Part shown: positions 31,901 to 59,291 of the stretch, piece after piece | Layout of the letters: each line of letters opens with the position of its first letter | How positions within the stretch are numbered: the first letter of the stretch is position 1 | NCBI GenBank assembly: GCA_051362555.1 | Contig: CM120641.1 | Coordinates: 3,534,001-3,598,000 of the forward strand | Reading direction: 5' to 3' | DNA length: 64,000 nucleotides | From: Lingula anatina | Taxonomy: Eukaryota > Animalia > Brachiopoda | Translations under genes and position numbers: made by a program | The notes under the pieces: generated by a model | Database searches by the model: none | What the model was told of the DNA's origin: nothing | Seen by the model: only the letters and a program-made list of their open reading frames with translations

Positions 31901-34900
31901 ATGTGGACTGCGCCAGACTGTTGCTGTACCACAAAGCACCCGTTGATGATGTCACCGTTGACTACCTGACACCTCTCCATGTAGCTGCTCACTGCGGGAA
32001 TGTGAAAACCGCCAAACTGTTGCTGGATAGAAAAGCGGAACCCAACTCCAGAGCACTGGTGAGAATGGGATGATGACATTGATTGGATTTGAATGTTTGA
32101 AATTATTTTTTGTTGGAAATTGAGAGTTAAAAATAGGTATTGGGATGTAGATAGTGTGGAGTTACTGTTTGAGTTTAATAGTTGCATTCAAGTAACTATT
32201 ACCTTAATATTTTTAATTTCAGAATGGTTTCACCCCTCTGCACATAGCATGCAAGAAGAACAGAATCAAAGTTGTAGAGCTTCTGTTGAAATATGGGGCC
32301 ACCATAGAAGCTACAACAGAGGTAAGGAGATACCACTCTGGTCTATAAGTATAGTCCACTGGTTTTGTCTAGTTCTTGTGAGTCATACTTAACATTTAAA
32401 AAATATCACAGTTGTAATATTAGTTACTGGAAGAAAATTTTAGTTGTAAAATTGCATGATAGATGTTGAAGCTAGCCACTATTAGAAATTTTATAGGTTT
32501 TATTTTAAATGTTTTTTTTTTCACCTTTCAGTCTGGCCTCACTCCCCTCCATGTTGCCTCCTTCATGGGGCACATGAACATCGTGATCTACTTGATCCAA
32601 CAAGGTGCAAATCCAGACTTCCCAACCGTACGTGGCGAGACACCTCTCCATCTTGCTGCACGTGCCAACCAGACCGACATTATTCGAATACTTCTTCGTA
32701 ATGGCGCACACGTGGATGCAAAAGCAAGAGTAAGTAATGCGATTCATATTTTTTGTCAACGTGAAGTGGTTGTTTCTATTTTGTTGGTAGTGGGTCTTAA
32801 CATTTTGGCAAGATATATGTAGACTAAAATAGACTTAAGATTACTCATATTACTTTAAGACTGTGGACCAGAAATCAAATTGAACAAGATGTATATCCAA
32901 CCTAAATTATAATAATTATAATAGAATATAATAAAAATGATCAAAACCATTTTAATGGCTGTTATTATAATAGACCTTAAATTAACTCTTCCTTTCTCTC
33001 TCCCAGGAACAACAAACTCCCTTGCACATTGCGGCCCGCCTGGGAAATGTGGACATTGTTGTGTTGCTGCTCCAACATGGCGCCTCCCCTGACGCTGTCA
33101 CTAAGGACCTGTACACACCGCTGCACATCGCAGCTAAGGAAGGTCAGGAAGAGGTGGCCTCTGTGCTGCTAGAACATGGGGCACAGCTGGACGTACAGAC
33201 TAAGGTAAGGACCTCATTGAAAAGTATCATAAGTTGTGTTATTATTTTTTTTTCTTTTGTAAACAGTTTGGCAAGATTTAAAAAAAAACATTTTTCTGTA
33301 TAATTTACTTGGAAATTATCAGTCTTTTTTATCCAGAAACAGTTTTGGGAAAGAATCTTGGAATAGTTCTATCAGCTGCCTAATTCACTTGGGCATCATT
33401 AGTATTTTCTTTCAACCGACATTTTGGCATAGGTTCTTTGAATAATTTCATCGGTTGTTTAATTCACTTGGGTATCATTATTTTGTTATGGTATTAAATT
33501 GGCTTACTCTTTTGTAAATGTTAGACTAAGGATTCTGCTTTTGTCTCTTTCTCCAAACCACAAGCTGTTTTTAGTAAAATGTTTTTAAGTGCACTTCAGC
33601 TGCAGTGAAAGTCTTCATCACTCTTAAGACATCAGTTTTTTATTTTAAAACTCACTTTTTTGTCAATTTCTTTTGTACCATACGGAATCTTTTATATCAA
33701 ATTATTTCAACTTAAGACTTAATGTATTGCTTAAACATGTTTTCGTTATAGAACACAAAATATTATTATATGAATTGAATTTGTTAACAGAATGTAATTA
33801 TTATTATTATAATTTTAAAATCACAGAAAGGATTCACACCCCTGCATATCGCAGCTAAGTATGGAAACATCAAGGTAGCCCGCCTCTTGCTGCAGAGAGA
33901 AGCTAACCCAGATATTCAGGGCAAGAATGGCCTGACCCCCCTCCATGTGGCAGCTCACTACAACAATGTCAATGTAGCCCTTCTGCTGTTGGAGAATGGA
34001 GCCTCTCCTCATGCAACAGCCAAGGTAGATATATGTTTAAAAAGTGTCATCAGTTGGGTAGATAGTAGAGATCTAAAGGTCTTTTGTCACAAGCTTAGAA
34101 AAATTTATCACTCATGTGGAATATTTTGACATGCCATGTGCCATCTTCATCAGTGTCAGAGTGACAAAGGTGACTTTAAGTCAGTAGTTGAGAGTACTCA
34201 AAGCTGTCCTGATATGTTAGGCTAAATATTACAAAGTTATATTCTAGAACCTATTAAGGTGCTTAACACAGGCCAAGTCAGCTCTGAATGATGGCCTCAA
34301 ATCTCTCAAATCCAAGGCAATATTTTGTCCAGTGACTGTTTAATATTTCCCAGTGACATGTATTAATGCCTTGGGACTATTTTCAGAACGGCTATACTCC
34401 CCTTCACATTGCTGCTAAGAAGAACCAGATGGACATTGCAACCACTCTCCTGGAATATGGTGCTAACCCCAACGCAGAGTCCAAGGTACTTATGCAGTCT
34501 GTTGATTTTTGTCAGTGTGATATGGAATTAAAAAATGAATGAATTTTAAAAACTATTAAAATGAGTAAAGATTAAGATAATTAAATTTGTCACTTTATGC
34601 AGTAATTTAGTAATGGTTTATTAAATTTGTCAGTCGAGCAATTTTAAATAAGAATTGTGTAATTCTGAAGCAGAAACACTTTAATTTGTATTTAAATTTA
34701 TATGCATATTGATATTACATAATTTTATCCTAACTTAAATTTAATATTTGTTCTCTGCTGACGCTTTTCTTGAGATGAGTGTCTGTTCTCGTTTGTCACT
34801 TATATCAGCCTGAAATACATAACTCTGCATTTCAGACAAGTAAGAAGAAGACTTGTTGACTAAATTTCTGTTGTTTATATGCCTTATGCAAAATTTTAAT

Positions 34901-37900
34901 GTGCATGCATTTGTGTGCTAAATCACACGAGAATATTCTGTATTATATCACAAAACACGTGCTGGCAATTGTAGAGTGGGTTCACCCCAATCCATCTGGC
35001 CTCCCAGGAAGGCCACACTGAGATGGTTGAACTTCTCACGGGGCGCGGGGGGGACCCCAATGATGCGTCCAAAGTAAGTAACTAACTAATAACGTTTCAA
35101 GCTGGGTTTTTCTCCTATCTTCCCCCCTCCTTTCTGTGGGAGCATGAAGTGGAGAAACCTCGTTGTTATTGCCATTACTAACAAGTTCTTGTTTGCCTAA
35201 TGCACAAACACTGCTTTCAGAGTGGGTTTACTCCCGTCCACATAGCGGTGCAAGAAGGACACTCTGACATGGTGTCCTTGCTATTGTTTCACAATGCAGA
35301 TCCCAATCAGAGGGCTAGAGTAAGTAGGGTGGACTGTCTTGCATGAGATGGTGCACAGGTGCTGATATCTGGTGGCAGTGGCAGGAGATGGGTTCAGTAA
35401 TAAGGCTGTCTAGAGTCTGTCCTCCCCTCCCTCCCCTCATAAAAAGCTCCATTCCTTCAAAAATCAGTTTTTTCAAAATAAACTTGCCAAAAAGGCTTCT
35501 AGATTTGGTGTTTACATAAACAATGTCTGAAAGATATTCTCCCGCAGTGCCTTTCTTGTTATCCTTGGCTACCAACAAGATTTTACCAATTGGAAAACCA
35601 TCAAATGAGGCACATTTATTAACTCAAATTATGCTGTTAAATGGACTATAAAGTCTTACCACCCCTACCAACACCCCCACCCACCTCTAAGTGCAGCCTT
35701 ATGACCTCCCCATCTTCTCTACTCCATCGCCAGCTCCGCCAATCTCCTCCTGCCTAGCTGGGGCTGGGGCGCGTGTGTGTGTGGTGCTTTACTAACTGAT
35801 ACTCACCTTGTGTGCTGGTTCTTCTCCTCCAGAGTGGTTTCACTCCAACACACCTGGCTTCCCAAGATGGTTACACTGACATAGTGTCCTTGTTGCTGGA
35901 GCATGGGGCACACGCTAACATCAAGGCGCATGTAAGTAGGCTAGGAGGTTACTAATAACTTAGGGACCTGACACAATGTGGGTGTGCAGATTGTCATGAC
36001 ACAATGTGGGTGTGCAGATTGTCATGACACAATGTGGGTGTGCAGATTGTCACACCTAACACAATAGAACACCCATCATGTAGGCTGACACTTCAAACTC
36101 GTTATCACAATCAACATTTTGCATCCCTTTGAGCAAGAATTTAAAAACTTTGGACTTGAGATTTGATAGTACTTACACATACACACATTGTTTATGTTCC
36201 TTACACCACTTTGCTGTCAAAACCAGAAACCAGAAACGATCTGGTGAAAGCAACAAAAGATAAAGCAGGTATCATACACACACCTAGAATAATGTAATAT
36301 GTTAAGCAACATGTACACTACGCCAGCAAATTTGACAAATGTCATTGCTTATTAAGCATATCATACATGTTGGTTTACATGGCATATGGGTTTTTGTAAG
36401 TTCAAGAGCTTTGGTGGGATTTTGGTTGTGTATTGTTGATGTTAATGTATCGCCAAATTCAAACAAGGAAAACAAAGAAAAAACACACTCATTATACTTA
36501 GGAGAATAAAAGAACATGCTATGCCACATAGTTTACTTGTAGACTGTTTTTCACAACACAAAACATGTATATATGAGAGTAGATGATTTGAATTTTTTTC
36601 CACCAAAAATATGACATTTGTTAACTTAGATAGACTCCAATACTTAGACAAACTAACCATAGACTAGACAGAAAGAATTAGTGCATAACAGACCTTGCAG
36701 TAAATCGATAACCTGAGTAGTGGGAGCCATTACTAGAGAATACATTAGCATCTGTTACCATATGCTATAGACCTCGGGGAATGTGTATTTGAAAGGGTTT
36801 TTGTGTAAAAGCTATTTTTATTCTGGTTTTATGTGCATGGTGATGTTTTTTTTTTTTTCTTTTTCTTTTTTTTTTTTTGGTCCATGAGAAATTGGATCTT
36901 GTTGCCCTGTTTGAAATGGACTGAGACAAAAAAATAGACTGGAATGATTTCCGATTTGTATGTGGGTTATTACACAGTGTGCTTTTCCCTTTTCCTTTGG
37001 TATTTTTCCCATCTTTTCAAATGCCATGAAAAATTAATTTAAAATGATTGTGGCTCTTCTGTAACTGAATGAGTCCAAAGATAATTGGCTTTTAAAATGT
37101 CACTGAATGGAAAAATACTGTGAAATGACTGCTTTATTATTTGATTATTTTGACCTGAAATGATTTTACCTATCAATCGCTGTGCCACACAGCCATGAAT
37201 GAAATGACCTGCTTGTACGATGTTTTATATATAATCTTCATATTATTTTGACATACATGAATTAGTTGTAAATTCACATTTGTATAAAGATATGTTGTAT
37301 CTCATTCTTTGAAAATAAGTTATCAGTAAGTATGGAGGCAATTACATGTAAACAACACCAGCTGAAATTTTGGTGTCAGATATAAATGTTCAAGAATTTA
37401 TTAAATTATAACACGGAATTTTTTAATTTTTTATCACGTTTTTATTTCTCTCTCTTTTAAAACCATGTTCATGGAGTAAGCTCCAACTTGTACCCAAGTC
37501 CTTCATGTAATTTCTCCCGTTCCCTTCAGAATGGTTTGACACCAATGCATTTGGCTGCCCAGGAAGACAGAGTGCCTGTGGCAGAAATCCTAGTCAAGAA
37601 AGGAGCTAATATTGATCCGACCACCAAGGTATGGTAACTTAAAAGAAATGTGTCTGATATTTCAGTCAGATTCATATTTGCAAACTTTTTTCAGCACAGT
37701 AAGTAGCGTTGTTTTATCAGACTTGATACTTCAAGCAAAATCAACTGAGACGACAGAGCATTACTGTTGTTGTCCTATGCACTCAGGAAATCTAAATGGT
37801 TTAAATTGAGAGTTCACACATGTTAACTAATATGTATGTAAAAGGTAGAGGCTTCATCAGAACCTGTTGTTTTATTCTATGATATGTTTTGATGGATACC

Positions 37901-40900
37901 GAAATTTTGCAGAAAAACAACTCAGATTTTAGCTTTTAATTGAAGAAACTATTACAGTAAGATAAAGTCTGATTAAGATGAAAGACTGAATTGTCTCTAT
38001 ATCTAGTTGTTATTATTCTTATTCTTATTATTATTAGGCTGGCTACACACCCCTCCACACTGCCTGCCACTTTGGTCAGATCAACATGATCCGGTTCCTT
38101 TTGGAACATGACGCCTCTGTCAACGCCACCACCAAGGTTGGTCACACGCCACTCCACCAGGCGGCGCAGCAGGGCCACGTCATGGTCATAGACCTGCTGA
38201 TTAAATACAAAGCTTCGCCTAATGCAGTCACAAACGTAAGTATGGACCGTGTGCATGTGTTCATATGTGTTATTTCAAGGCAGTGGCTTAATGCTAAAGT
38301 GCTGTATTTAGCAGGAAGTGTAAAAATTGTGTGAGATGTATTCAGAAAGCAATGCTAAATTATTATAGCTGTTTTGTAAAAAAATTCAAAATTGGAGTCA
38401 GTTTTGAGCCAAGGGCAAACCAACACAATTGCATGCAATATATATAGTCACAGTCTCAGTTGTGATACTACTCTTTGATAAAATTTATTTGAACAGCTCA
38501 ATGCAACTATTTTTAAAAGGAAAGAAAAAGTTTGAATTTAATAACATTATTATCGTTGCAAATATCACTGTCTTCCAGAATGGACAAACTCCACTTTCGA
38601 TTGCCCAGCAACTTGGCTACATCTCCGCTGTCGAGGTTCTGAAACCCATCACCACCGTGGTCGTAACCGAGACAACCACCATCAAGGAGCGCGGAAAGTA
38701 CGAGATGGTCGGACCAGAGACCATGCAAGAGACACTCCTTGACACAGACTCTGAGGAGGAAGGAGGTAAGAAATGTGACTTCAGAATAAGAAATAAGGTT
38801 GAATTGGTAAGTTAGGTAGCCTGAGGGGAAAGAAGTATTTTGCAAAAAAAAAAAAAAAAAAAAAAAGGAAATACCGAAAGTTGATTAGGGAAAAGAAGTG
38901 GGATAGAATGTTATGATTTGGAAACATTTGTAACCCATGTTGTTCTTGGGGAGGTCCTTGAGATAGAGGGGTGATTGTCTACTTGTAAATATGGACTCAG
39001 AATAGAAATGAAGATGGTGTAGTATCATTTGCAGATAGCATTATGATTTAAAAGTTCTTAAAAATGCCCAAGTTATGGGGTGGCTGAAATAGGAAAACTC
39101 AAATTTCATGAAAAAAAGGTATATTTAGCAGATTAAGGGGAATAACAACAAAATAACAGTTTAATGTGACAATAGAAGAGGGTGGAGGGTGGCAAAAATG
39201 TCCTAAGCATTAAACCATTCAGAACCATTTGCAATGAAATTTTTAGTACCGTACATATTCTGCCTTGGCATACTGTTATTGATTGATTTGTTTCTATGAG
39301 TCATTCAGGAAATGAGATATCATCCTGTGGCCATAGTAGATCAATAAAGTTGTCAGCCAGATTGATGATGTGTCTATCTGCATGTATCATAAGGGCAGAA
39401 GCCAGACAGTTTTATTACTTCTACATTAGAACATGCATATAACCCAGAAATACTGTACAGTCCCTATCTCATTAGAAAAGATGTATGGAAATTGCTAGCA
39501 TGACAATAATGACTTGAGTCCTCTGCTAATCACGAGATGGCAAAAATTGATGAATTGGGATATAATATATGGTGTGGTAAAATTGATTGTGTTGGACATG
39601 TTGCCTTGACGTTGAAGGGATTTGATATGCATTGCTTTATTCCTGAGAATGACAAGTGATAACCTAATCAATGGAGTGTATGGGTCTTGTTATTGATTGG
39701 TAGGGTAGAGTGTGTAGCAAGTAGTATTAAGAGATTGGTATTTTTTTTCTTTTTGCATATGGAAATTTCTTGTAGGATATTGTATTGGGAAATTTTTACA
39801 GAGTGAATTGAAATTTTAAATGTATGCTATGATCATTTGATAAAGTAGTTACTTAAAAATAAATTGAATGAATACTTGTCAAAATTCTCTTTGTGAGTGA
39901 TTATTATTATTTTGAAAAGAGATAATCAAAATCATTAAAAGCTTGAATCTAAAATTTTGATAAAAATATAACTTCACAATGTTGAATATTCTAGAATTTA
40001 AGTAACTACTTTTTCAGCAAGAACATTTTTTTTTACTTATAACATTTTTGCATGAAACTATTATATTGATGTTGTATATAAATATATATTGATATGGAGT
40101 ATGCCCATATTCTGTCAATATTCTATTCATGTACCCTCTTGCATTGAATTGCTGATACCTCATGCACCCGCTTTAGACTGTTGCTTAATTGTCCACTAAG
40201 CCTTGAGCCTCGAAACCCAGAGTCATTTCTCCAAGCATGTGTCTCAATTTGCACTTATATCAATGTTATCAAAGTGTAACCAATCCTGCTTGCATGCAAA
40301 TGCTCTATAGAAACTAACAGCTTTACTTATTATCTCTCACATTCAGAACATATTACCTCTACAGCTGCACATAATGAACATATTCTCCTTACTGATAGTG
40401 TGAGCATTCTACTGAATCCTCTGAGAAGCATGTGTCATTATAGTAACAGACTCATGGAATTGAAGTGCATTCTAACATTGCATGACCATGCTCAAAATAT
40501 TCCCATATAGAATACTTTCAGCATATTCAGAGATGCCGATACACATACTAATATTTCCAAGAACACATTTCCACCAAATTACACTGTTGTACACCAGCAG
40601 TGACACGCATGTGCATGATAACACGTATCATAGTTAATACTATCTTTTCAACAAAAATTTGACTCATGTTAACTAAAATTACCAAATTCATCCCCATCAC
40701 CTTTTTTCTGTAACATAACCAAACAACATAAGGACAAATTCAAGTCAAATATCAACTATACCAGTTACGCTAAAGGTGGTATGCAGTGGTGCCCCCTATA
40801 CTCACACTCAGTGGTCATAGTGGTTGCTTATCTCTGTGCTGTCCCCCCAGGTGAAGTGTTTGCTGTAGAAGACTATATGCCTCGCTCCCCATTACTGGGA

Positions 40901-43900
40901 GGCGACCAGAGGGTCTACCTGCCATATTACCAGGGCGATTCCATGAGGGTGGATGGACGTAAGTCATGTGTGGAGAAAGTTGATTGGTCGATTGGTATTC
41001 GGAGCTATTTCTTATAATGAGCACACTATAGCAACAACTGTCAATGGCAAATTCCTTACTGCTTGATTAGTTTCAATTCACAGTGCCATATTTTCACACA
41101 AATCGTCATGCTTTGATGTAGACTTGCTTGTTGATGTTGATGTGTAGTTTATTTTGTTTGTTTATTATTATCTTAAATGTTGTAATTATTGTGTAGTTTA
41201 CAGCTGGAAGAAAAAATAAAGGTAAGGTTTTCATGTTGTCAACTAGTTTAACACCACCAACTATGCTTTATCCTCATGCAATGTGGATACAGCCAAACCC
41301 TCTTGCTTATGGTGGCTTTCTGCCTCTTTTAGTCCAGAGTCCTAGTCTCTGAACTGAGCTGGGAAGGGTAGAAACCTAAAGAAATTTCAGATATTGACCC
41401 CACTAATGTCATTGCAGGAGAAGACACCATCTTGGGAGACCAGACTTTCGCCTATCTGCAGCAGGATGACATGCATCAAGAGTCAGCTATCAGACCTGTT
41501 AAGGTAAGTGCACTGTATAGGACTCTTATGCCATGGCCCTTGAAGCAAAGGCACATTTACACATGCCCAGTGGAGCTAATTGGGTACCAGGGTGGCACAA
41601 AGTTGGGACAGTTTTATATAGATAACTCAGTGCTTTATTTGATGGAGCTACCTTGACTTTTAGGTTAGCTGAAAAGTTGTGTGAATTTAGACTAAACTGC
41701 TTTTCAAAATTGCTGAATGTGAAATTTTAAAAAAGGTGCTACTTGTGGCTTAAAGGTTATCGGCCTTGGACCAAGAAGTGAATAGCAATATTTAAAACTT
41801 AACAGTGTGCACTGGGTACACAGCACACGTGCTACACTATTGTTTTAAAATAAACTTCCCAAATTATGTGCCATTCTGGTTCAAAGTGCATTGTGTAAAA
41901 CGGGGGTTAGCAGAGCTTCAGTGCACAGACTGGATATAACATAGCAGGTATCTGTGTACCTATATGCACTGCACAGGTGGAGGTATGGTGTATAACATGG
42001 GTGAATTGACTGACAATTTAACCTCACACTCTTAGCACAGTTGACATGGTGGAGGGACGGTGTGATCAATTATGTGAGTCTGATTTTTTATGGTCATGCA
42101 ACTATCTTAGTTGTCTATAAACCTCTCATTATCTTTATTCTGAGGTGATCTTCTTCATAACTTCTTGTGAAGATCTTCAGCATATATTTATGCACTGTGC
42201 AATCTTTTTAGCTGCAGTTCTGAAGCTTTATGTAGGATAAAGAGACATAGTAATGCTGATGACTATTGCAACTACTACATAGAGTTGCCCTGGTCTTACT
42301 TTAGTCCTTTTTAACTTGATATATTTCTTCACTTCTCTTGTGGTGGTCTGCTTTCTATAAACTCTCTTCAGTGGTTGGGGTTAGGAACATGGGTATCCTC
42401 TCTTCTGCTGTGTAGAAACATGCAGTTATGGTTTGACTTCATATCTATAGACCAAGAATGGACTAATTTATATCACCAGATTAAAACTTTGAAATTCTCA
42501 CATGGAATCTGGTGATGTCATATAGTCTAAGTTGATTTTTGTGTGAACACATCCTGTAAGTGGTGGGGGTCTCTGGTGGAAAAAAATTCTTGTATGGCCA
42601 GGCTATGCATGCACAGTTCATTTCTACTAATCTGTATAACCTGACTGTTCTAACATAGTATTTAGGCAATGCTTTTCTAGTGTTTTGCCCCCCCCCCCCC
42701 CTGCACTTGTTATACAAGATCAAACTTGCACTATTATCTTGTAGAATTTGTGTATGTTTGTGTGACTCAGCATGAGTGCATGAGAATGCATGTCAGGAAC
42801 TAATATACTAAAATTCTTTTTATTTCTTTTTATCTATATGCATTTTTTCATTTTCATTATTATGTTCTTGCACTTGTTTTTTGATTTACTTAAAATTCGT
42901 AACCAAATTAATTTATTTAATTTTATTTTGATTTTTGATATAATTATCTCCCCATTTTGTTACTAATGTTGTTTTCATAAAATGCAACATTTTGAGCATA
43001 TTTTTATGTACAGTGTTAATTTATTTGGTTAAATTGTATTGTAAATGTTTTTCAGTAGATTGTAGTTTAGTTTATTCCCAGCATGTTTTTGTTTATAAGT
43101 TGTATGAATGTTTTTTAAAATTAAAAAAAAATTAATTTTAAATTTATTTTACCTGGAATGATTTTATATTTTGGTTAGCTGAACAGAACTGTTTACTATC
43201 TTAGGTGTAGAGTAGTGAGTGCAACCTATTGTAACACCCTTGTACAGTACACAAACCCAGTGAAGCCGTTCTATATAGACAGAAAAATAAAAAAAATACT
43301 ATTGAAGGAATTAGTTTTGCCTCATCTCTGAAAGTCAGTTTGAACACCCCAAATTCTGAGTTGTCTAGAAACCTGCCTCAATTCCCAGCATACTAGTACT
43401 GTTCACTGGAGAATATGCTTGATAGAGGTGAATTGATTCTGCTTCTTTGAAACTCAATTAATTACACACATTTAAAATAAATTAATTCTTGTTTAACCTA
43501 TAGAAATGTGAGTTAATGTACCATTCAGAAATTAATTTTTCAAACCAATCTGTTGAAGTTTTCACACAGGCATATGGCAAAATCAGGCATCTAAATTGAA
43601 AAAAAAAATCCCCATTTTTTTGGCAAATGGCAAAGAACTTTTCAACAACATACTGTCAAGGGTTTCCAGTTGCAATAGGTTTTAGTATAGATGTTGTAAG
43701 CATGTTGTGTTGCATTGTTGCCATTGTGTTGTTGCCTAGGACGGCTACCTGTCCCCAGACCAATACACACAGGAACCCTACTCCCCAGGGTACTCCCCCA
43801 CAGGATATGGGGAACAGATGGATCTGTCCCCAGGACCTTTCAGCCCTGGTGGTTTTGGACCCGACCAATTGAGGGAGTATGATGAGGACTTTGCTTATGT

Positions 43901-46900
43901 CCCTGGGGATAAAAGAGCAGTGAAGGCTCGTCCCGAGTCTTTTAATGATCCCCAAAGACGACCACGTCCTCCTGGCGATGATAAAGTTGCCAAAAAAGCA
44001 CGTCAGGAGTCTCTGTCTGATGCTGCCATGCGCGCGTCAATGGCGGATGATAAACAGAGAGGTTCCTGGCGTGGCGGCCCTGAGGATTCTGGTCTTGGTA
44101 CTCTACCAGAAGGGGCCCAGTATAACCATTACCCTAATGGGGGTCAGGTAAACTTCACCATAAACCCTTCACTTCTATGTTCTTTTTCTATTTCTCGGGA
44201 TAAGCATGGTTGTTTTGGAAGAAAACTTGGTTTCTGTCTCCTGAGGTGTTTGGATATTGGGAAAGAAGGATACTTTTAGGATACCAATGGATACCAAAAG
44301 CAGAGAAAAGTTTGTCTTTGTTAAAGCTTCAAAGACATATCTTTTTTATCTTGAAAATGTTTCTAAATTATATTTTCTTTGATACATGATTTACATTCTT
44401 TTTAAAGAAAGAATATGTTTGAGTGAAAATCATTAAAACATTATAGGTATTTGATAAAAATGATATTCATATAGAATGAAATCTATTGTTTTTCTTTTCA
44501 CTTGCAGGAAGACAAGATTGAAGCCCAGTATCGCCCCTCTGCATACTCACGACCCGTGATGCAGACAAACGCTTTGGGCAGTGAACCCTTTTATGGCTCA
44601 TCCTATAGTGGCTCCACCTTCAGTGGACAATTTGATGCGGACAACGTCCAGGTGGATCGCACTCCTGTGTTTAGCGGGTAAGATGGCGAGAATGCAGTGA
44701 CATATATGGACCTCTGAATATGCATCAGTAGTGGCAGTATTTTCACGTTCTGTAACAGAAAAATTGCTAATTATGCACGGTGTTATGTTAGAGATGTTAA
44801 GAGTTTGGCGATGTTAAAAGACTAGAATGTTATTATGTTTGTACAGGTATGCTAATATCTGGTAGAACATATTAGATGATCCCAGTTTTCAGCATAACCC
44901 AAAGAATGATTAGATTCTACTAATTAAAACAGTTTTTCAAAGCATATGAACAACTGATGTACACAAAACTCTGAGCTTCAATGCAAGGGTCTGGGGAGCA
45001 ACAACGACAATAAAAAACAAAAGCACTGCATCATAAATTTTTCAATTTTTTTTTGCGTCCAAATCACAAGTTCACCTTCAAGAATGATTCCTTAATTAAC
45101 AGCATACCTGTGCTGTAGTGTTTAGAATCCTAATTAGCTTCAAAAGCTTCACTAACTCCAGTTATTCTCTCTTCTACACCTCATCACAGAAAGCTGAAGT
45201 GGAAAAAGTAAGTGGTTTTGATTTCAATGTGCCATAAAAAGTATGAATTTTGTCAATTTTTTTTTCTTTTTTTAAAGCTGGTGCTGTACCAAAGCATGCT
45301 GCTTCTTTTGTTATCTCTTACAAGAAATGCAGGTGATCATATCAGACAAAGGAATTGTTTCTCTCTTATTTTGGACTATACCATCTTTACTGTTTATATT
45401 TTATTCTGTTAAAGAATTTAGATGTGATAACAGTTTTATTTAATTTATTTCCTCCTGTTGATATCCCCACCTATACCCTCACCTATTTTTTGTACCAAAA
45501 GAACCCCCCCCCCCCCCCCCCCCCCCCCCCCGCCCTCTTCATCTTTCCTGCATGGAAAACACTTTGCAGTTTTGTAACACATACTTCCTCTCTGAGGTTG
45601 CATGCTGAACACAGACTGGTTTCACAACTTTCAGACAAGAAATTTAAGTCTACTTTGATTCAGGGTGAATCTAGTAGTTCACTTAAAATAAGCAGCACTG
45701 TCAATAAGATATAACTGTCTTTTTATTAAACAGACACAATATTTCATTTAATTGGACTGTTATGGATTCATCTTGATGCAAAGTAGGCAAAGATACTCAT
45801 CCTAAGCTAATGCAAACTTTACTCCTAAGATTCTTTAATGAGAGCATTCCCTGTGGTAACTTAAACCAACCAAATTTACACCACCCCTTGCCTTGTGATG
45901 TCTTTCAGACTATTTTTGGATGAAATTAGTCCAATTCTGAATGTGCCTTAGTATTATGACAGCCTAATATGAAATATCATTCCAGAAAACTTCACTGCAA
46001 AAAAATGATATTGCTATATTAGCTCTGGTAATAATCTACAAATCACATTCCAAATATTTTAAAGTAAAAGCAGTTGTGTTGTCTAACCATCTGAAAAATC
46101 CAATAAAAATTGGAAATTATAGTAGCCAGTAAATAGATCAATTTAAGAAAATGTTTTCTCAGAGTTCATTTTCTCTGGAGAGTTTTCCATAATGTCTATG
46201 CATGTTAGCATATGATATGATGACATCAGAACCTCCTCCTTACCTGTGAATGTGAATAGTTTTCTTACAATTATTACCTGGTTCCTGGTTTAATTGACCG
46301 TTCAATCCTAACTGTTTTTTGTTACTGTTGTAAAGCAGCTGAAAAATCTCAAGAGTCTCTGTGACTTTGGATGGGTTGCTTAACAATGTGAAACATTTAT
46401 ACTTTTTTATACCAAGGTAAAATTTTGATTTCGTATTTATGTTTGCATGTTGCATTGAAAGTGTTATAAACCTGTAGAATGATGTAGCCTTATTTTGAAA
46501 TGTTCATATTTTAGTTATTGTTTTTATTTAGCTGCCTATATGGTACGAAGGAGGTATTGCTAATGACAAAGCCTTATTATATTATATTATATTATATTAT
46601 ATTATATTATATTATATTATATTATATTATATTATATTTGTATGTTTATCATTAGCTTCAAACAAATGGTCGAGTGGTTATGTGTGATATTTATAAGTCA
46701 GTATAACCACTTTGCTGTGATCTCGTAGAGATTGATTTACTCTGTTGCAGAGAAATTTAAGTGTTATATCATCCCTGGCTTTATCTCATTTGTTGATGCA
46801 TTTTACTTATTTACTTGTTTTCAGTTAACTTTAGTAAAAAAATCAAAATTATGAGTATATATTTTTGAAATGTTCCCTTGCATCTTTCAGCTTCCTTGTC

Positions 46901-55400: not shown

Positions 55401-58400
55401 AACCAGGCTATTTGTGTTGCCTTGGCATTTGTTGTGTTTAAAGCTTATTAACAATGCCTGATAACAGTAACTGGTTGTGAATATGATATGACAAATATAC
55501 CTACACTGTTTGAAAAAAGGGCAAAAAAATAGTATGGTGTGTTACTATGTAGAGCTCAAAGGACATGATGAGATAAGTAGCTGAAGCCTGTTGTGAAAAC
55601 TACCCTTTTGGTAGCAACAGGGTCTGGACAGGTGGAAAATGCTGCAAGAACTTTTCCAAAGAAGGTGTTTTTTATTTTCTAGGATTAGAAAATGCTTTTT
55701 AGTTAGGTGTTGTAAATATAGTAAGATTGTTCTCTTTTTATTTTTATCCAAGCGTGTGTATAAAATGTTTAATTCTCTCTCCTGCATGTTACGATAGACA
55801 CAGAATCTGTACACGAAGAGTCCTTAATTGCGACAGTTGACGACAGGCGTCCTGTCAAACAAATGTCAACGGAGTCCGAAGAAGAGCGGGAACGAGAGAA
55901 GAAAAAGGAAGCATATCTTGAACTTATTAATTTACTCAATGATACAGAGGCAGCTTTACAACCTGATGATGTTAAATTTGACTCCTATGAAGGTTAGGTG
56001 CTGTGCCTGGATATGATATTAATACTACAACTGTAGTATTGCACTTTCAGTATTAGTATTCCTAATGTGGTAACGTTTTGATTTATTTTCTCTAGATCTT
56101 GAATGTTTATTAATCCACTTGAATGTTTTGATGCCTGTTTTCTCTTCCCACGGCCAAGGCTAACTGACCCAACGCAGCCACGTTTGCCTGCTACAGTCAC
56201 TTCAATATGGGGGTAAAACGAGAATGTCCACACATTGTTTCTATTTTTGGCAAATACTAATGAAGGAAAACACTATTATATGAATGATTTTGTCAAAGTG
56301 ATCTGAGGAAGTCAAAGCATTTGATGAAACTGCTTTTATACTGTTTCAAATAAATTGAAGTCACAATAAACGGGTCGTTGCTTATGTACACAGTTTTGAT
56401 ACCGAAAATTTAAAAGTCGTTCCATATTGATGTGACCCATAATCCAATTTTTTTATTTCAAATTTTACTTGGTTGCATGTTGGAAGATACATTTGTAAAA
56501 TGTGTATGTTTTACCACATGTGTTTGTATTATTTGACAAGTTTTGCGTGCCTAATATGAATTGTTCTTTGTGAATTTTTTAAACTTGTGCACTTTTGATA
56601 TAGTAAAAAGGATAGATTATTAAGAGCATGAAGTGTTGAAGGAACAGAAGATGTCTTAGTTGACATTGTTTGAGCATGTTAACTTAGAGTTGTAGTGTAG
56701 CTGTTCAGTAGAAGTTTAGTAATTTTTTTTTATTCTAGGACAGAATGTGTGCATGAAGAGTTATTAAAGGCAGATTGTTTTACCCCATGCCCAACCATCA
56801 TCTTCCCTCAATCACAATGAAGTTTGTGTTAAACATCAGACATTCCTTAATGCAGTCAAAATAAAGCTTAAACTTGATGCTTTCAGGCAGAAAAAGTATA
56901 CACATTTTATTTACCTCCCTCCATTTACCTTTAATTGAAAATGTTAATTGGTATTTCCCACTTAGACCTTTGCTATCTATACATGTCAATTAAACCAGTG
57001 TATTATAGATATATTGATATCAACATGAAAACCCAGCTTGGTTTTTCCCGTGGTTAAGGGGAAATTGTCCAACTTACCAAATCCCCCCTTTTTTTATGTT
57101 TAACAGCTTTTATGAATGTTGCATGCTTAAATTTTTGGTGCATGTTTTCTTAACAGTTATAAAATTTTTTGGTGTCAGTTGATATGTAAACGGTAAAGCA
57201 TAAATGGAATTTTACATGAAATAATTTGTTTTTCCTTCACAATATCACCAGTGTGATTATTCTTTGGGATAAAGTGTGTGCTGAACGCTATCACTTGCTT
57301 TCACTTGAACAAAATCGTGTTTGTTACAGTAATTGTGCGTTTTCTAAGCACACATTTCTCTCTGTATCTTGTCCTGTCTTCCTTTTTATTGTAAAAAAAA
57401 ATGTCTTCTATATATATATGCATCTGGTTGTGGGGTTTGAGGTGACAGTGCTTACACTAATGCTTTTGCAGACTCCCCTCAAGTGGATGAGGACACAATA
57501 GAGAAAAGAGACCGTCAGGAAGCGGTTGAAGATCTCATTGATAAAATGAACCAGCTCGATACAGAGGCTCAGCCTTCTCCCGAGTCTGAGAGCTCTATGA
57601 TTATACATGAGGATAAAGGTATACTAACTGTCAGTGCTTCTCGCTTCAGTGTGGCATTGGTATTTAGAAGAAACTACATTGAAATGCATTTCAAATGGAT
57701 GGTTTAATATATTCATATATGTATACATGTATTGCAACTTTTTAAGTCAAAGCTTGAACTGGAATGCATTTTAATGAAGTTTAATTATATTTGGTATGTA
57801 TTAATTTGCTTTTGGTTCATTCACTTCTCAACCCTCACGAAAAAGTCCTATAGGATCCTACAGGAAATTGGCCCATTTTCCTGTAGGATCCTATGAGATC
57901 TTATAGGATCCTACGGGACTTTTTCATTAGGGAATGCATAACTCGATTTAGTCAGCAACTCTTGTCTTTTAAATCCTATATACATATGTATTGGTAAATG
58001 CATGCTGCTGTTGATCTTTTAAGAGCTGTATACTCTTACTTTTGCTTATATGATCCTTGCTACAAAATGAGATCTGTGCTACTTCATTGCTCAATTCTGC
58101 TTTATTTTATACAAGTCATATTGTTATTCCTGTATAATTGAAAATGACATGTGTTATAAGGCATGGATATATTTGAAGGATGTGACTTGTAGTTTTGAAT
58201 AATTTTGCCAAAAATGCTTATTGTTTGTGCTAAGTCTTAAGCTTCGTTCACATGGAATGTCTATTTTCTAAAAATCTATTTTCTATTCGCGCTATCTTAT
58301 GATCACGGTCTGTGCACTGAATATCCCGCCGCGTAATTACTGGCAGCGCGAGCCAGTTACTTATAGTAACTTATTGTAACTGGCTCGCGCTGTCAGTAAT

Positions 58401-59291
58401 TACGCCACGGGATATTCAGGGCACATACCGTGATCATAAGACATACCGCGAATAGAAAATAGAATTTAGAAAATAGACATTGCATGTGAATGAAGCCTTG
58501 TTCTGCTTTGCCTTACACATTTAAGGTCTTATAAAACTTTTATAAATCTCTTTTATAAATCAAAAAGGACTTTGAGTTAGTGCTATTTGTAAACAGCTAT
58601 CTTACAATCCAGATTATTGTTTTGAACTTTTTCAAAATTAATTTTATCCAAATATTTTTTCCCTTCAGATCATAATTGTATTCTGAACCAATGATTTCCC
58701 ATAATTCAGTTCACACTGGTATCAAAACTATTTCTATACTTGTGTAAAGATATCTTTCAAGAAAAAAAAAGGAATTCCAGTCTTTGTTTTAAATTTAAAA
58801 CATGGTGCATTTATGTTTCATTTTAGCACTTGTACCCGTTCATATCACATATATGTATATAATCTTTAGGTTGTAAGAGTGAGCTTTGAATGTGATAATC
58901 CACTTATTCAGTGCTACATATAAACAGTGTAACATAGCCGACTGATATGGATGTGTTATTTATTTTGCTGTCACAAAAGGCATTTAAACTTCATGTGCAT
59001 ATGGAAGTGATGGTGAATTGTATTATTTTGATCTCCCGTGCTTAATGACTAGCTGCTTTGTTGTACCCCTATTGCATGTTTTTTTCTGCCCTGCTCCTTG
59101 CAGATGAGGACAGCGAGAAAGCCCTGGATCTTGAAGGTGAACTGAAAACTCCTCCACCAAGTCCCACCGAGAAATCTTCAGGTACATACATCAACTACTA
59201 ACTCAAGCATGTGTCTTGTTTGCAGTGACTAACATACAACTCCCTAGTGATTGTGTGCATTCTGTAACTTACCCGTGCTGGCTGTCATACC

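Follow-up and report, generated by a model that had tools for sequence, protein, structure and literature searches.

The question raised by this locus is how an ankyrin gene of the brachiopod Lingula anatina chooses among three versions of a single ankyrin repeat, and whether competing RNA base pairings in the introns make that choice, as an earlier note on the sequence had proposed. The window, that is the whole stretch of 64,000 nt that was analyzed, carries a canonical ankyrin gene on its + strand. A tblastn search showed this gene to be colinear with an Octopus ankyrin from the first repeats to past the death domain, with a membrane-binding array of ANK repeats and, after it, ZU5/UPA and death-domain regions. 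Across 11 constitutive exons, 452 of 528 residues were identical to Octopus, and for the same exons 384 of 528 residues were shared with one insect ankyrin and 331–372 with three vertebrate ankyrins. The cluster of variant exons was assigned to repeat 20 by counting repeats in the Octopus ankyrin P0034, and the best match to 5Y4F begins at position 662 of ankyrin-B. The cluster and its constitutive neighbors are as follows.

34387..34485, + strand: constitutive exon, ankyrin repeat 19 (AG/GT-bounded, open, 99 nt; joined by RNA reads to a, b and c)
34975..35073, + strand: exon a, the dominant variant of repeat 20 (entered by 188 of the 208 joints listed in four runs; polypyrimidine tract 0.41 pyrimidine)
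35221..35319, + strand: exon b, a minor variant of repeat 20 (entered by 7 of the 208 joints)
35833..35931, + strand: exon c, a minor variant of repeat 20 (entered by 13 of the 208 joints)
37530..37628, + strand: constitutive exon, ankyrin repeat 21 (exon boundaries and RNA reads)

Exons a, b and c are each 99 nt long, bounded by AG and GT, and lie between the repeat-19 and repeat-21 exons. They were mutually identical at 58–59 of 99 nt, and the neighboring exons were less similar to any of them. Exon c was closest to repeat 20 of Octopus (23 of 33 residues, compared to 21 for b and 19 for a) and was usually the nearest to single-copy orthologs.

The use of the exons was followed in RNA reads from 4 of 9 listed runs (X12, X15, X18 and X16, which carry no tissue labels), covering 6–25% of each, with joints listed from 3 reads upward. 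Repeat 19 was joined to exon a by 5, 87, 38 and 58 reads in X12, X15, X18 and X16 (188 in total), to exon b by 0, 4, 3 and 0 reads (7), and to exon c by 0, 4, 5 and 4 reads (13), so exon a accounted for about 90% of the listed entry joints. Joints leading out to repeat 21 numbered 216 for a, 3 for b and 5 for c in the same four runs. No a-b or b-c joint was listed in the four runs at the threshold of 3 reads, and the sole double join listed was a-c, with 3 reads in X18 only compared to 31 reads from a to repeat 21 in that run. Double inclusion was thus seen in 3 reads versus 224 listed single-exit reads, the pattern of tandem exons that are used one at a time. Exons b and c are so rare, with 7 and 13 entry reads and the 3-read threshold, that the missing b-c joints carry little power. 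All three exons are used, almost always singly, and they form a real mutually exclusive cluster. The three-exon cluster of alternative repeat-20 exons described in the earlier note was thereby confirmed, including its nearly exclusive use. Since each exon is 99 nt long, a double inclusion would stay in frame and the exclusion must occur at splicing; in a frame-neutral cluster, the decay of frameshifted messages cannot enforce exclusivity.

The 24 repeats of ankyrin are highly conserved, and here one of them occurs as three expressed versions. The affected repeat belongs to a surface that, in vertebrate ankyrin-B, holds the autoinhibitory linker; there, according to sections of PMC5779224, the AI-c autoinhibitory segment binds R18-24 and Met839 sits in a pocket of Leu668 and Leu701. 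Leu668 of ankyrin-B corresponds to position 8 of repeat 20, and the residue at this position is L in a, I in b and L in c. The differences among the variants are found mainly in the second half of the repeat and at position 6 (I, V and T in a, b and c, and L in most orthologs). By analogy with ankyrin-B, swapping the variants would alter or tune repeat 20 of the linker-binding surface. Among the read differences (40 listed of 50), 4 of 6 in the cluster exons changed a residue compared to 4 of 34 in the constitutive exons, suggesting that the cluster exons are under relaxed or diversifying change.

Orthologous loci were collected by a scan of the repeat 17-18 exon against metagenomes, where the best 80 of 350 confirmed loci were fetched and 20 were examined by pattern. 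Repeat 20 was found in 10 of these 20 ankyrin loci, in a single copy in all 10, and was fused with a neighboring repeat inside one exon in 9 of the 10. At locus L004 it was a stand-alone exon, on a contig that stops 914 nt further on. The Octopus ankyrin has one repeat-20 sequence throughout all 48 isoforms. The three-exon cluster was absent from every ortholog locus showing repeat 20, both among the metagenome loci and in the Octopus isoforms, and protein searches, which matched only Octopus isoforms, mostly vertebrate ankyrins or nothing at all, brought up none of the variants a, b and c. From this thin sample, the triplication looks lineage-restricted.

The earlier note had placed a docking site in intron b-c and a selector after each of the first two variants, all of which were paired by hand. 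The elements are listed here in the form in which they were analyzed.

35369..35415, + strand: 5′ arm of stem 2, consisting of selector 2 and its extensions (duplex energies, comparisons with tiles and shuffles)
35685..35737, + strand: 3′ arm of stem 2, consisting of the dock and its extensions (pair probability 0.997)
35139..35156, + strand: selector 1, weak and probably not a functional selector (−19.4 with the dock; at background level; predicted to be unpaired with the dock)
35087..35168, + strand: hairpin 1 in intron a-b, with its 5′ arm at 35104–35131 and selector 1 in its 3′ arm (−25 kcal/mol, z −3.2)

The five strings named in the earlier note were all present in the window, with the dock at 35709–35737, selector 2 at 35369–35392 and selector 1 at 35139–35156, and duplex calculations reproduced both hand pairings (−30.7 kcal/mol for selector 2 and −19.4 kcal/mol for selector 1). 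The selectors start at similar distances from their exons, 66 nt past exon a and 50 nt past exon b. Both use the same core of the dock, 35715–35723, in an identical register (AGTGG-AGAA versus AGTGGCAGGA), so the two pairings exclude each other, as had been claimed. A site 24 kb upstream also pairs with the dock, at −30.5.

The pairing of selector 2 with the dock reached −52 kcal/mol when the ATAAGGCTG/CAGCCTTAT and TAGAG/CTCTA extensions and the flanks were included, and selector 2 was the best partner of the dock anywhere in the 64 kb. When no elements were preselected, the best long-range 40 × 40-nt duplex of intron b-c was −45.6. None of 122 other 513-nt tiles (mean −24.9) attained this value, and 1 of 88 controls shuffled inside 20-nt blocks did. 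Stem 2 is a non-random long-range stem beyond chance. In folding calculations the predicted probability of the selector 2/dock pairing was 0.997; the folding is an equilibrium calculation on 760–1100 nt that ignores bound proteins and co-transcriptional splicing, and it can mislead.

The selector 1/dock pairing behaved differently. It was reached by 0 of 300 dinucleotide shuffles of the intron and by 31 of 2000 shuffles of the element, but in real sequence it was equalled by 43 sites in the window and by 36 of 435 147-nt tiles. Selector 2 exceeds the shuffled controls that the earlier note had asked for and real tiles too; selector 1 beats the shuffles and is marginal, at the level of ordinary sequence, against real tiles. 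The acceptor of exon a pairs better with the dock (−23.6) than selector 1 does, with 5 of 2000 shuffles and 14 sites in 64 kb equally good; this pairing was not adopted as a candidate. Hairpin 1, which holds selector 1, was matched in stability by 11 of 190 GC-matched real windows and by 0 of 200 shuffles, and its probability in folding was about 0.93–0.95. According to the prediction, it would already be folded by the time the dock is transcribed. Forcing selector 1 onto the dock cost approximately 13 kcal/mol in ensemble energy, and the probability of the pairing was about 0 without blocking, 0.0002 with selector 2 blocked, and 0.11 when the hairpin 1 arm was blocked too. The value remained tiny even with selector 2 blocked because selector 1 is held in its own hairpin. 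Footprints of QKI or RBFOX that might free selector 1 were also considered and rejected, as the probability was still 0 after those sites were opened.

In the model that follows from the earlier note, the two selectors compete for the dock, so that a paired selector would activate exon a or exon b and a free dock would lead to exon c. The common core and register and the similar distances from the exons are what the duplication of a hairpin arm would give, according to passages of PMC6071210 and PMC4174434. Of the windows scanned in the flanking introns, the dock was the best at pairing with two partners (−22.5/−25.7, versus no better than −20.2/−22.8 elsewhere), and a selector 1/dock stem would loop out exon b. 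The same scan found no canonical dock above background downstream of c (best −20.2/−22.8). Against the model, one of its two pairings is at background level, energetically disfavored and improbable even when it is given free rein, as described above, and the introns a-b and b-c showed no significant overall similarity as a trace of duplication, with 58 of 200 shuffles scoring equally high. The dock lies upstream of c, so neither selector pairing loops c out. Moreover, predicted pairing strength does not track the reads: selector 1 has a probability of about 0 and selector 2 of 0.997, compared to 188 entry reads for a and 7 for b out of 208, so that the stronger pairing goes with the rarest exon, whereas in human ATE1 the ratio of isoforms depends on how stable the competing helices are relative to each other, as proven by compensatory mutation (PMC7797038). 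The selector 1/dock stem is predicted to be unformed, yet its variant a makes up about 90% of the entries. A two-way selector switch is likely not what chooses among the variants, and we regard the competition model as improbable.

Other elements that could bear on the choice were found around the acceptors and past the 5′ splice sites of the variants.

35081..35092, + strand: overlapping ACTAAC/ACTAAT (STAR/QKI-type) just past the 5′ splice site of a (motif scan; putative binding)
35176..35182, + strand: perfect TACTAAC at the branch-point position of b, with CTAAT at 35197 (motif; putative branch point)
35790..35796, + strand: perfect TACTAAC at the branch-point position of c (motif; putative branch point)
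35773..35915, + strand: predicted hairpin in which the branch point, the pyrimidine tract and the acceptor of c are paired with exon c itself (−49.9 kcal/mol, z −1.9)
35333..35352, + strand: small predicted hairpin after b, its loop overlapping a TGCATG (RBFOX-type, 35340–35345; folding, motif scan)

TACTAAC occurs six times in the 64 kb, and two of these copies are at the branch-point positions of b and c; for the other 23 acceptors that were examined, no copy lay within 70 nt. Within the 1157-nt cluster, five ACTAAY motifs were observed (two of them overlapping) versus 0.8 expected. The acceptor of exon a was the most pyrimidine-poor of 25 examined, at 0.41. Exon a dominates despite this tract, so b and c appear to be actively held down. 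In mammalian cells, exons with ACUAA branch points are repressed by QKI and a UACUAAY downstream of an exon is associated with inclusion in muscle, whereas most neurons are without QKI, according to sections of PMC13004596. The placement of the motifs agrees with such a QKI/STAR map for a and b. Exon c is also followed by an ACTAAT, at 35951, and thus carries motifs on both sides. One TGCATG lies 73 nt upstream of a and another closely follows b, an arrangement that would favor b by the RBFOX position rule.

Steric exclusion operates when a 5′ splice site and a branch point are about 50 nt or less apart. From the 5′ splice site to the TACTAAC, the distances were 107 nt in intron a-b and 475 nt in intron b-c; with these putative branch points, they become short only if the predicted stems fold. 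In linear terms, both distances exceed the limit for steric exclusion. In the predicted ground state, stem 2, hairpin 1 and the hairpin at the acceptor of c coexist with probabilities of 0.997, 0.93 and 0.95. The acceptor hairpin is statistically weak, 10 of 200 shuffles being as stable, although its probability is 0.95 in context. The pyrimidine tract of b is predicted to be covered by a 7-bp helix.

The reading that we tentatively favor, at somewhat less than an even chance, is that a triplicated exon is used singly because stems that do not compete occlude the acceptors of b and c and hinder a-b and b-c splicing, while STAR/QKI-type proteins set the choice. With hairpin 1 folded, about 25 unpaired nt would separate the 5′ splice site of a from the branch point of b, instead of 107 nt. 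Stem 2, together with its side helices, would close up the greater part of intron b-c, and the branch point and AG of c would be buried in the third hairpin. This ground state would leave exon a as the default, and a-c would be the one double join without a stem that closes its intron. A QKI-like protein could repress b and c by sitting on their perfect UACUAAC branch points and could activate a from the ACUAAY cluster that follows this exon; cells without such a protein, possibly aided by RBFOX, might then switch to b or c. The predicted ground state agrees with the observed dominance of exon a, and the only double join that was seen is a-c. Against this reading, the ACTAAT after c breaks a clean map in which a is switched on and c is switched off. 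The QKI rules that were applied to the cluster derive from mammalian cells, and the perfect match to TACTAAC may mean no more than that these branch points are strong. Known intronic stems often enhance the splice that they bridge by approximation, as reported in parts of PMC4691838, and by this analogy stem 2 could act in the opposite direction, enhancing rather than blocking.

The same motifs can be taken to suffice without the stems. The structures would then be incidental or a matter of fine-tuning, and proteins (STAR/QKI, RBFOX and GU-binding factors) together with splice-site kinetics would keep b and c off by default. Motif placement by itself predicts the dominance of a, and as b and c are rare, few double inclusions would be expected in any case. 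Purine-rich and pyrimidine-rich tracts also cross-pair easily, for instance the dock with the site 24 kb upstream (−30.5). This is hard to reconcile with stem 2 being the strongest long-range duplex of 123 tiles, reached by 1 of 88 shuffles that preserve local composition, and with its position exactly between two variant exons, and we consider an explanation by proteins alone unlikely.

A scan across thousands of window pairs brought up, post hoc, one further pairing, which involves an element before the first variant.

34907..34933, + strand: element upstream of a, candidate partner of the segment after b, with a local hairpin at 34911–34930 (duplex −28.2)

The element pairs with 35335–35364 over 14 contiguous pairs at −28.2, which would loop out a and b, and the value was reached by 0 of 150 block shuffles and at 0 of 21 other acceptor flanks. 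For the segment after b it ranks second in the 64 kb; seven other listed sites lie within 1.5 kcal/mol, and one is stronger. The predicted probability is about 0.01 because both arms hold local hairpins. The segment after b can alternatively pair upstream of c, at −22.6. On these pairings a code of several states could be built, in which the stems of the ground state would give a, the upstream pairing would select c, for which its geometry is suited, and stem 2 would bridge or protect b; the alternative partner upstream of c would fit such a code as well. The post hoc origin of the upstream pairing, the near-equal sites and its low probability speak against it, and so does the fact that it offers no means of skipping a when b is used. 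We hold such a code to be doubtful. In a related architecture without docking, which we likewise rate as doubtful, the exon would be recently triplicated, coexisting stems would shut the internal introns and bury the acceptors of b and c, the upstream pairing would free c, and STAR/QKI and RBFOX sites in the bases and loops of the stems would flip the state by cell type. If true, it would mean cell-type-specific versions of a repeat that binds the autoinhibitory linker of ankyrin.

The earlier note had also called this the best candidate for an undescribed system. There are good descriptions of mutually exclusive clusters with competing pairings, among them the reviews PMC7404189 and PMC11802352 and a paper on PGRP-LC (PMC6191721). 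Docking/selector control is a known kind of system, and the cluster would therefore not be an undescribed system even if the competition were true. The cluster is real and expressed, its repeat-20 exons are used in a mutually exclusive way, and one of its intronic stems is strong. Literature searches, covering article listings and main texts, turned up no paper on mutually exclusive repeat-20 exons in an ankyrin; the word 'ankyrin' is absent from the main text of PMC9741552. An Rfam search of 34400–37600 with E up to 1 gave 0 matches. The cluster spans about 1 kb, is frame-neutral and of minigene size, which would allow a clean test of dock competition versus simple intron closure, and such a test would lie outside insects and vertebrates.

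Among known systems, exon 5 of insect 14-3-3zeta, with its elements IE1, IE2 and IEa, is similar in having three tandem duplicated exons (parts of PMC4174434 and PMC6071210) and in that the sequences after the first two exons are complementary to one downstream element. IE1 sits downstream of exon 5a, and the position of IEa is not fixed in the relevant section of PMC4174434. PMC6071210, a secondary source, puts the docking site of 14-3-3zeta after the last of the variable exons, whereas the ankyrin dock precedes the last variant c, and the match in geometry that had been proposed between the two clusters conflicts with this. In addition, one of the two ankyrin pairings is weak and predicted to be unformed, and both are predictions from sequence. 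In right-docker clusters of the 14-3-3zeta, Mhc and MRP1 type, the dock is downstream of all variants and pairing strength tracks isoform use; in the ankyrin cluster the dock is in intron b-c and the strength, as far as it is predicted, does not track use. The cluster would work like RNA-structure-assisted exon exclusion, but these two defining features of the 14-3-3 type were not found in it.

A likeness in logic is offered by exons 7a/7b of human ATE1 (R1R3 versus R3R4), where intronic helices around tandem exons block double inclusion and where exclusivity and ratio are set by separate modules, as laid out in sections of PMC7797038. In contrast to ATE1, the predicted stabilities in the ankyrin cluster point the opposite way for a competition. 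The docking/selector system of Dscam1 exon 6 and the bidirectional system of srp (excerpts of PMC6071210 and PMC4691838) share long-range intronic pairing in a mutually exclusive cluster, and the ankyrin cluster also has a candidate upstream pairing. Unlike them, it consists of three exons and has no upstream element that pairs well before both b and c. A left-docker arrangement of the Dscam1 exon 6 type was rejected, as the best upstream element reached −28.2 with intron b-c and only −16.3 with intron a-b. The competition between QKI and SF1 at UACUAAC branch points (part of PMC13004596) has its parallel in the perfect UACUAAC at the two minor exons and the ACUAAY downstream of the major exon a; it was shown for mammalian cassette exons, whereas the present case is an invertebrate three-exon cluster with candidate sites identified as motifs, including an ACUAAU after c. 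Compared to the canonical 24-repeat ankyrins, ankyrin-B (PDB 5Y4F) and Octopus P0034, the order of repeats and the ZU5/death-domain region are alike, but repeat 20, which is single in Octopus, occurs in three versions in the gene of the window.

Further pairings were predicted for the docking site in the intron between exons b and c and for selector 2, beyond the selector stems themselves. The acceptor of exon a (34957-34986) gave a predicted duplex with the docking site of -23.6, which was stronger than that of selector 1 with the docking site. Selector 2 could pair with the 5' arm of hairpin 1 (35113-35130), a predicted hairpin in the intron between exons a and b, with a predicted duplex of -21.8, and this pairing would loop out exon b. 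By its sequence, the same arm appears similar to the docking site. Two further features flank exons a and c:

34911-34930, upstream of exon a: short predicted hairpin with CTAAAT, a branch-point-like motif, in its loop
35969-36052, starting 38 nt past exon c: perfect, GU-rich tandem repeat of 28 nt in three copies

Among the read differences listed, four of six in the variant exons (34975-35931) altered a residue, compared to 4 of 34 in the constitutive exons. Run X18, one of the four RNA read runs, held numerous fixed differences from the window across 33800-38300 despite its identical species label, and this suggests that its source was a divergent population or a cryptic species. At position 35873, which is paired in the predicted acceptor hairpin of exon c, X18 differed from the window in 6 of 11 reads. 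Among joints with at least three reads, double inclusion of exons a and c (35073 to 35833) was seen in X18 only, with three reads; this join keeps the frame and would yield 25 ankyrin repeats. A joint in X18 that goes back 35 (33825-33859, nine reads) possibly reflects the end of the upstream exon misplaced onto similar sequence.

Elsewhere, two pairs of features were recorded:

58270-58470 and 41574-41894: inverted repeats that form strong duplexes, at -42.4 and -37.4 respectively, and may be what is left of small transposons
40868-40984 and 44598-44678: two short exons of the linker that joins the ankyrin repeats to ZU5, candidates for more alternative splicing

Among the ten orthologous loci that showed repeat 20, only L004, a metagenome ankyrin locus, carried it as a stand-alone 99-nt exon (L004:4082-4180). 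This exon was single-copy in the available sequence, the contig ending 914 nt later, and its layout is one from which the triplication could arise.
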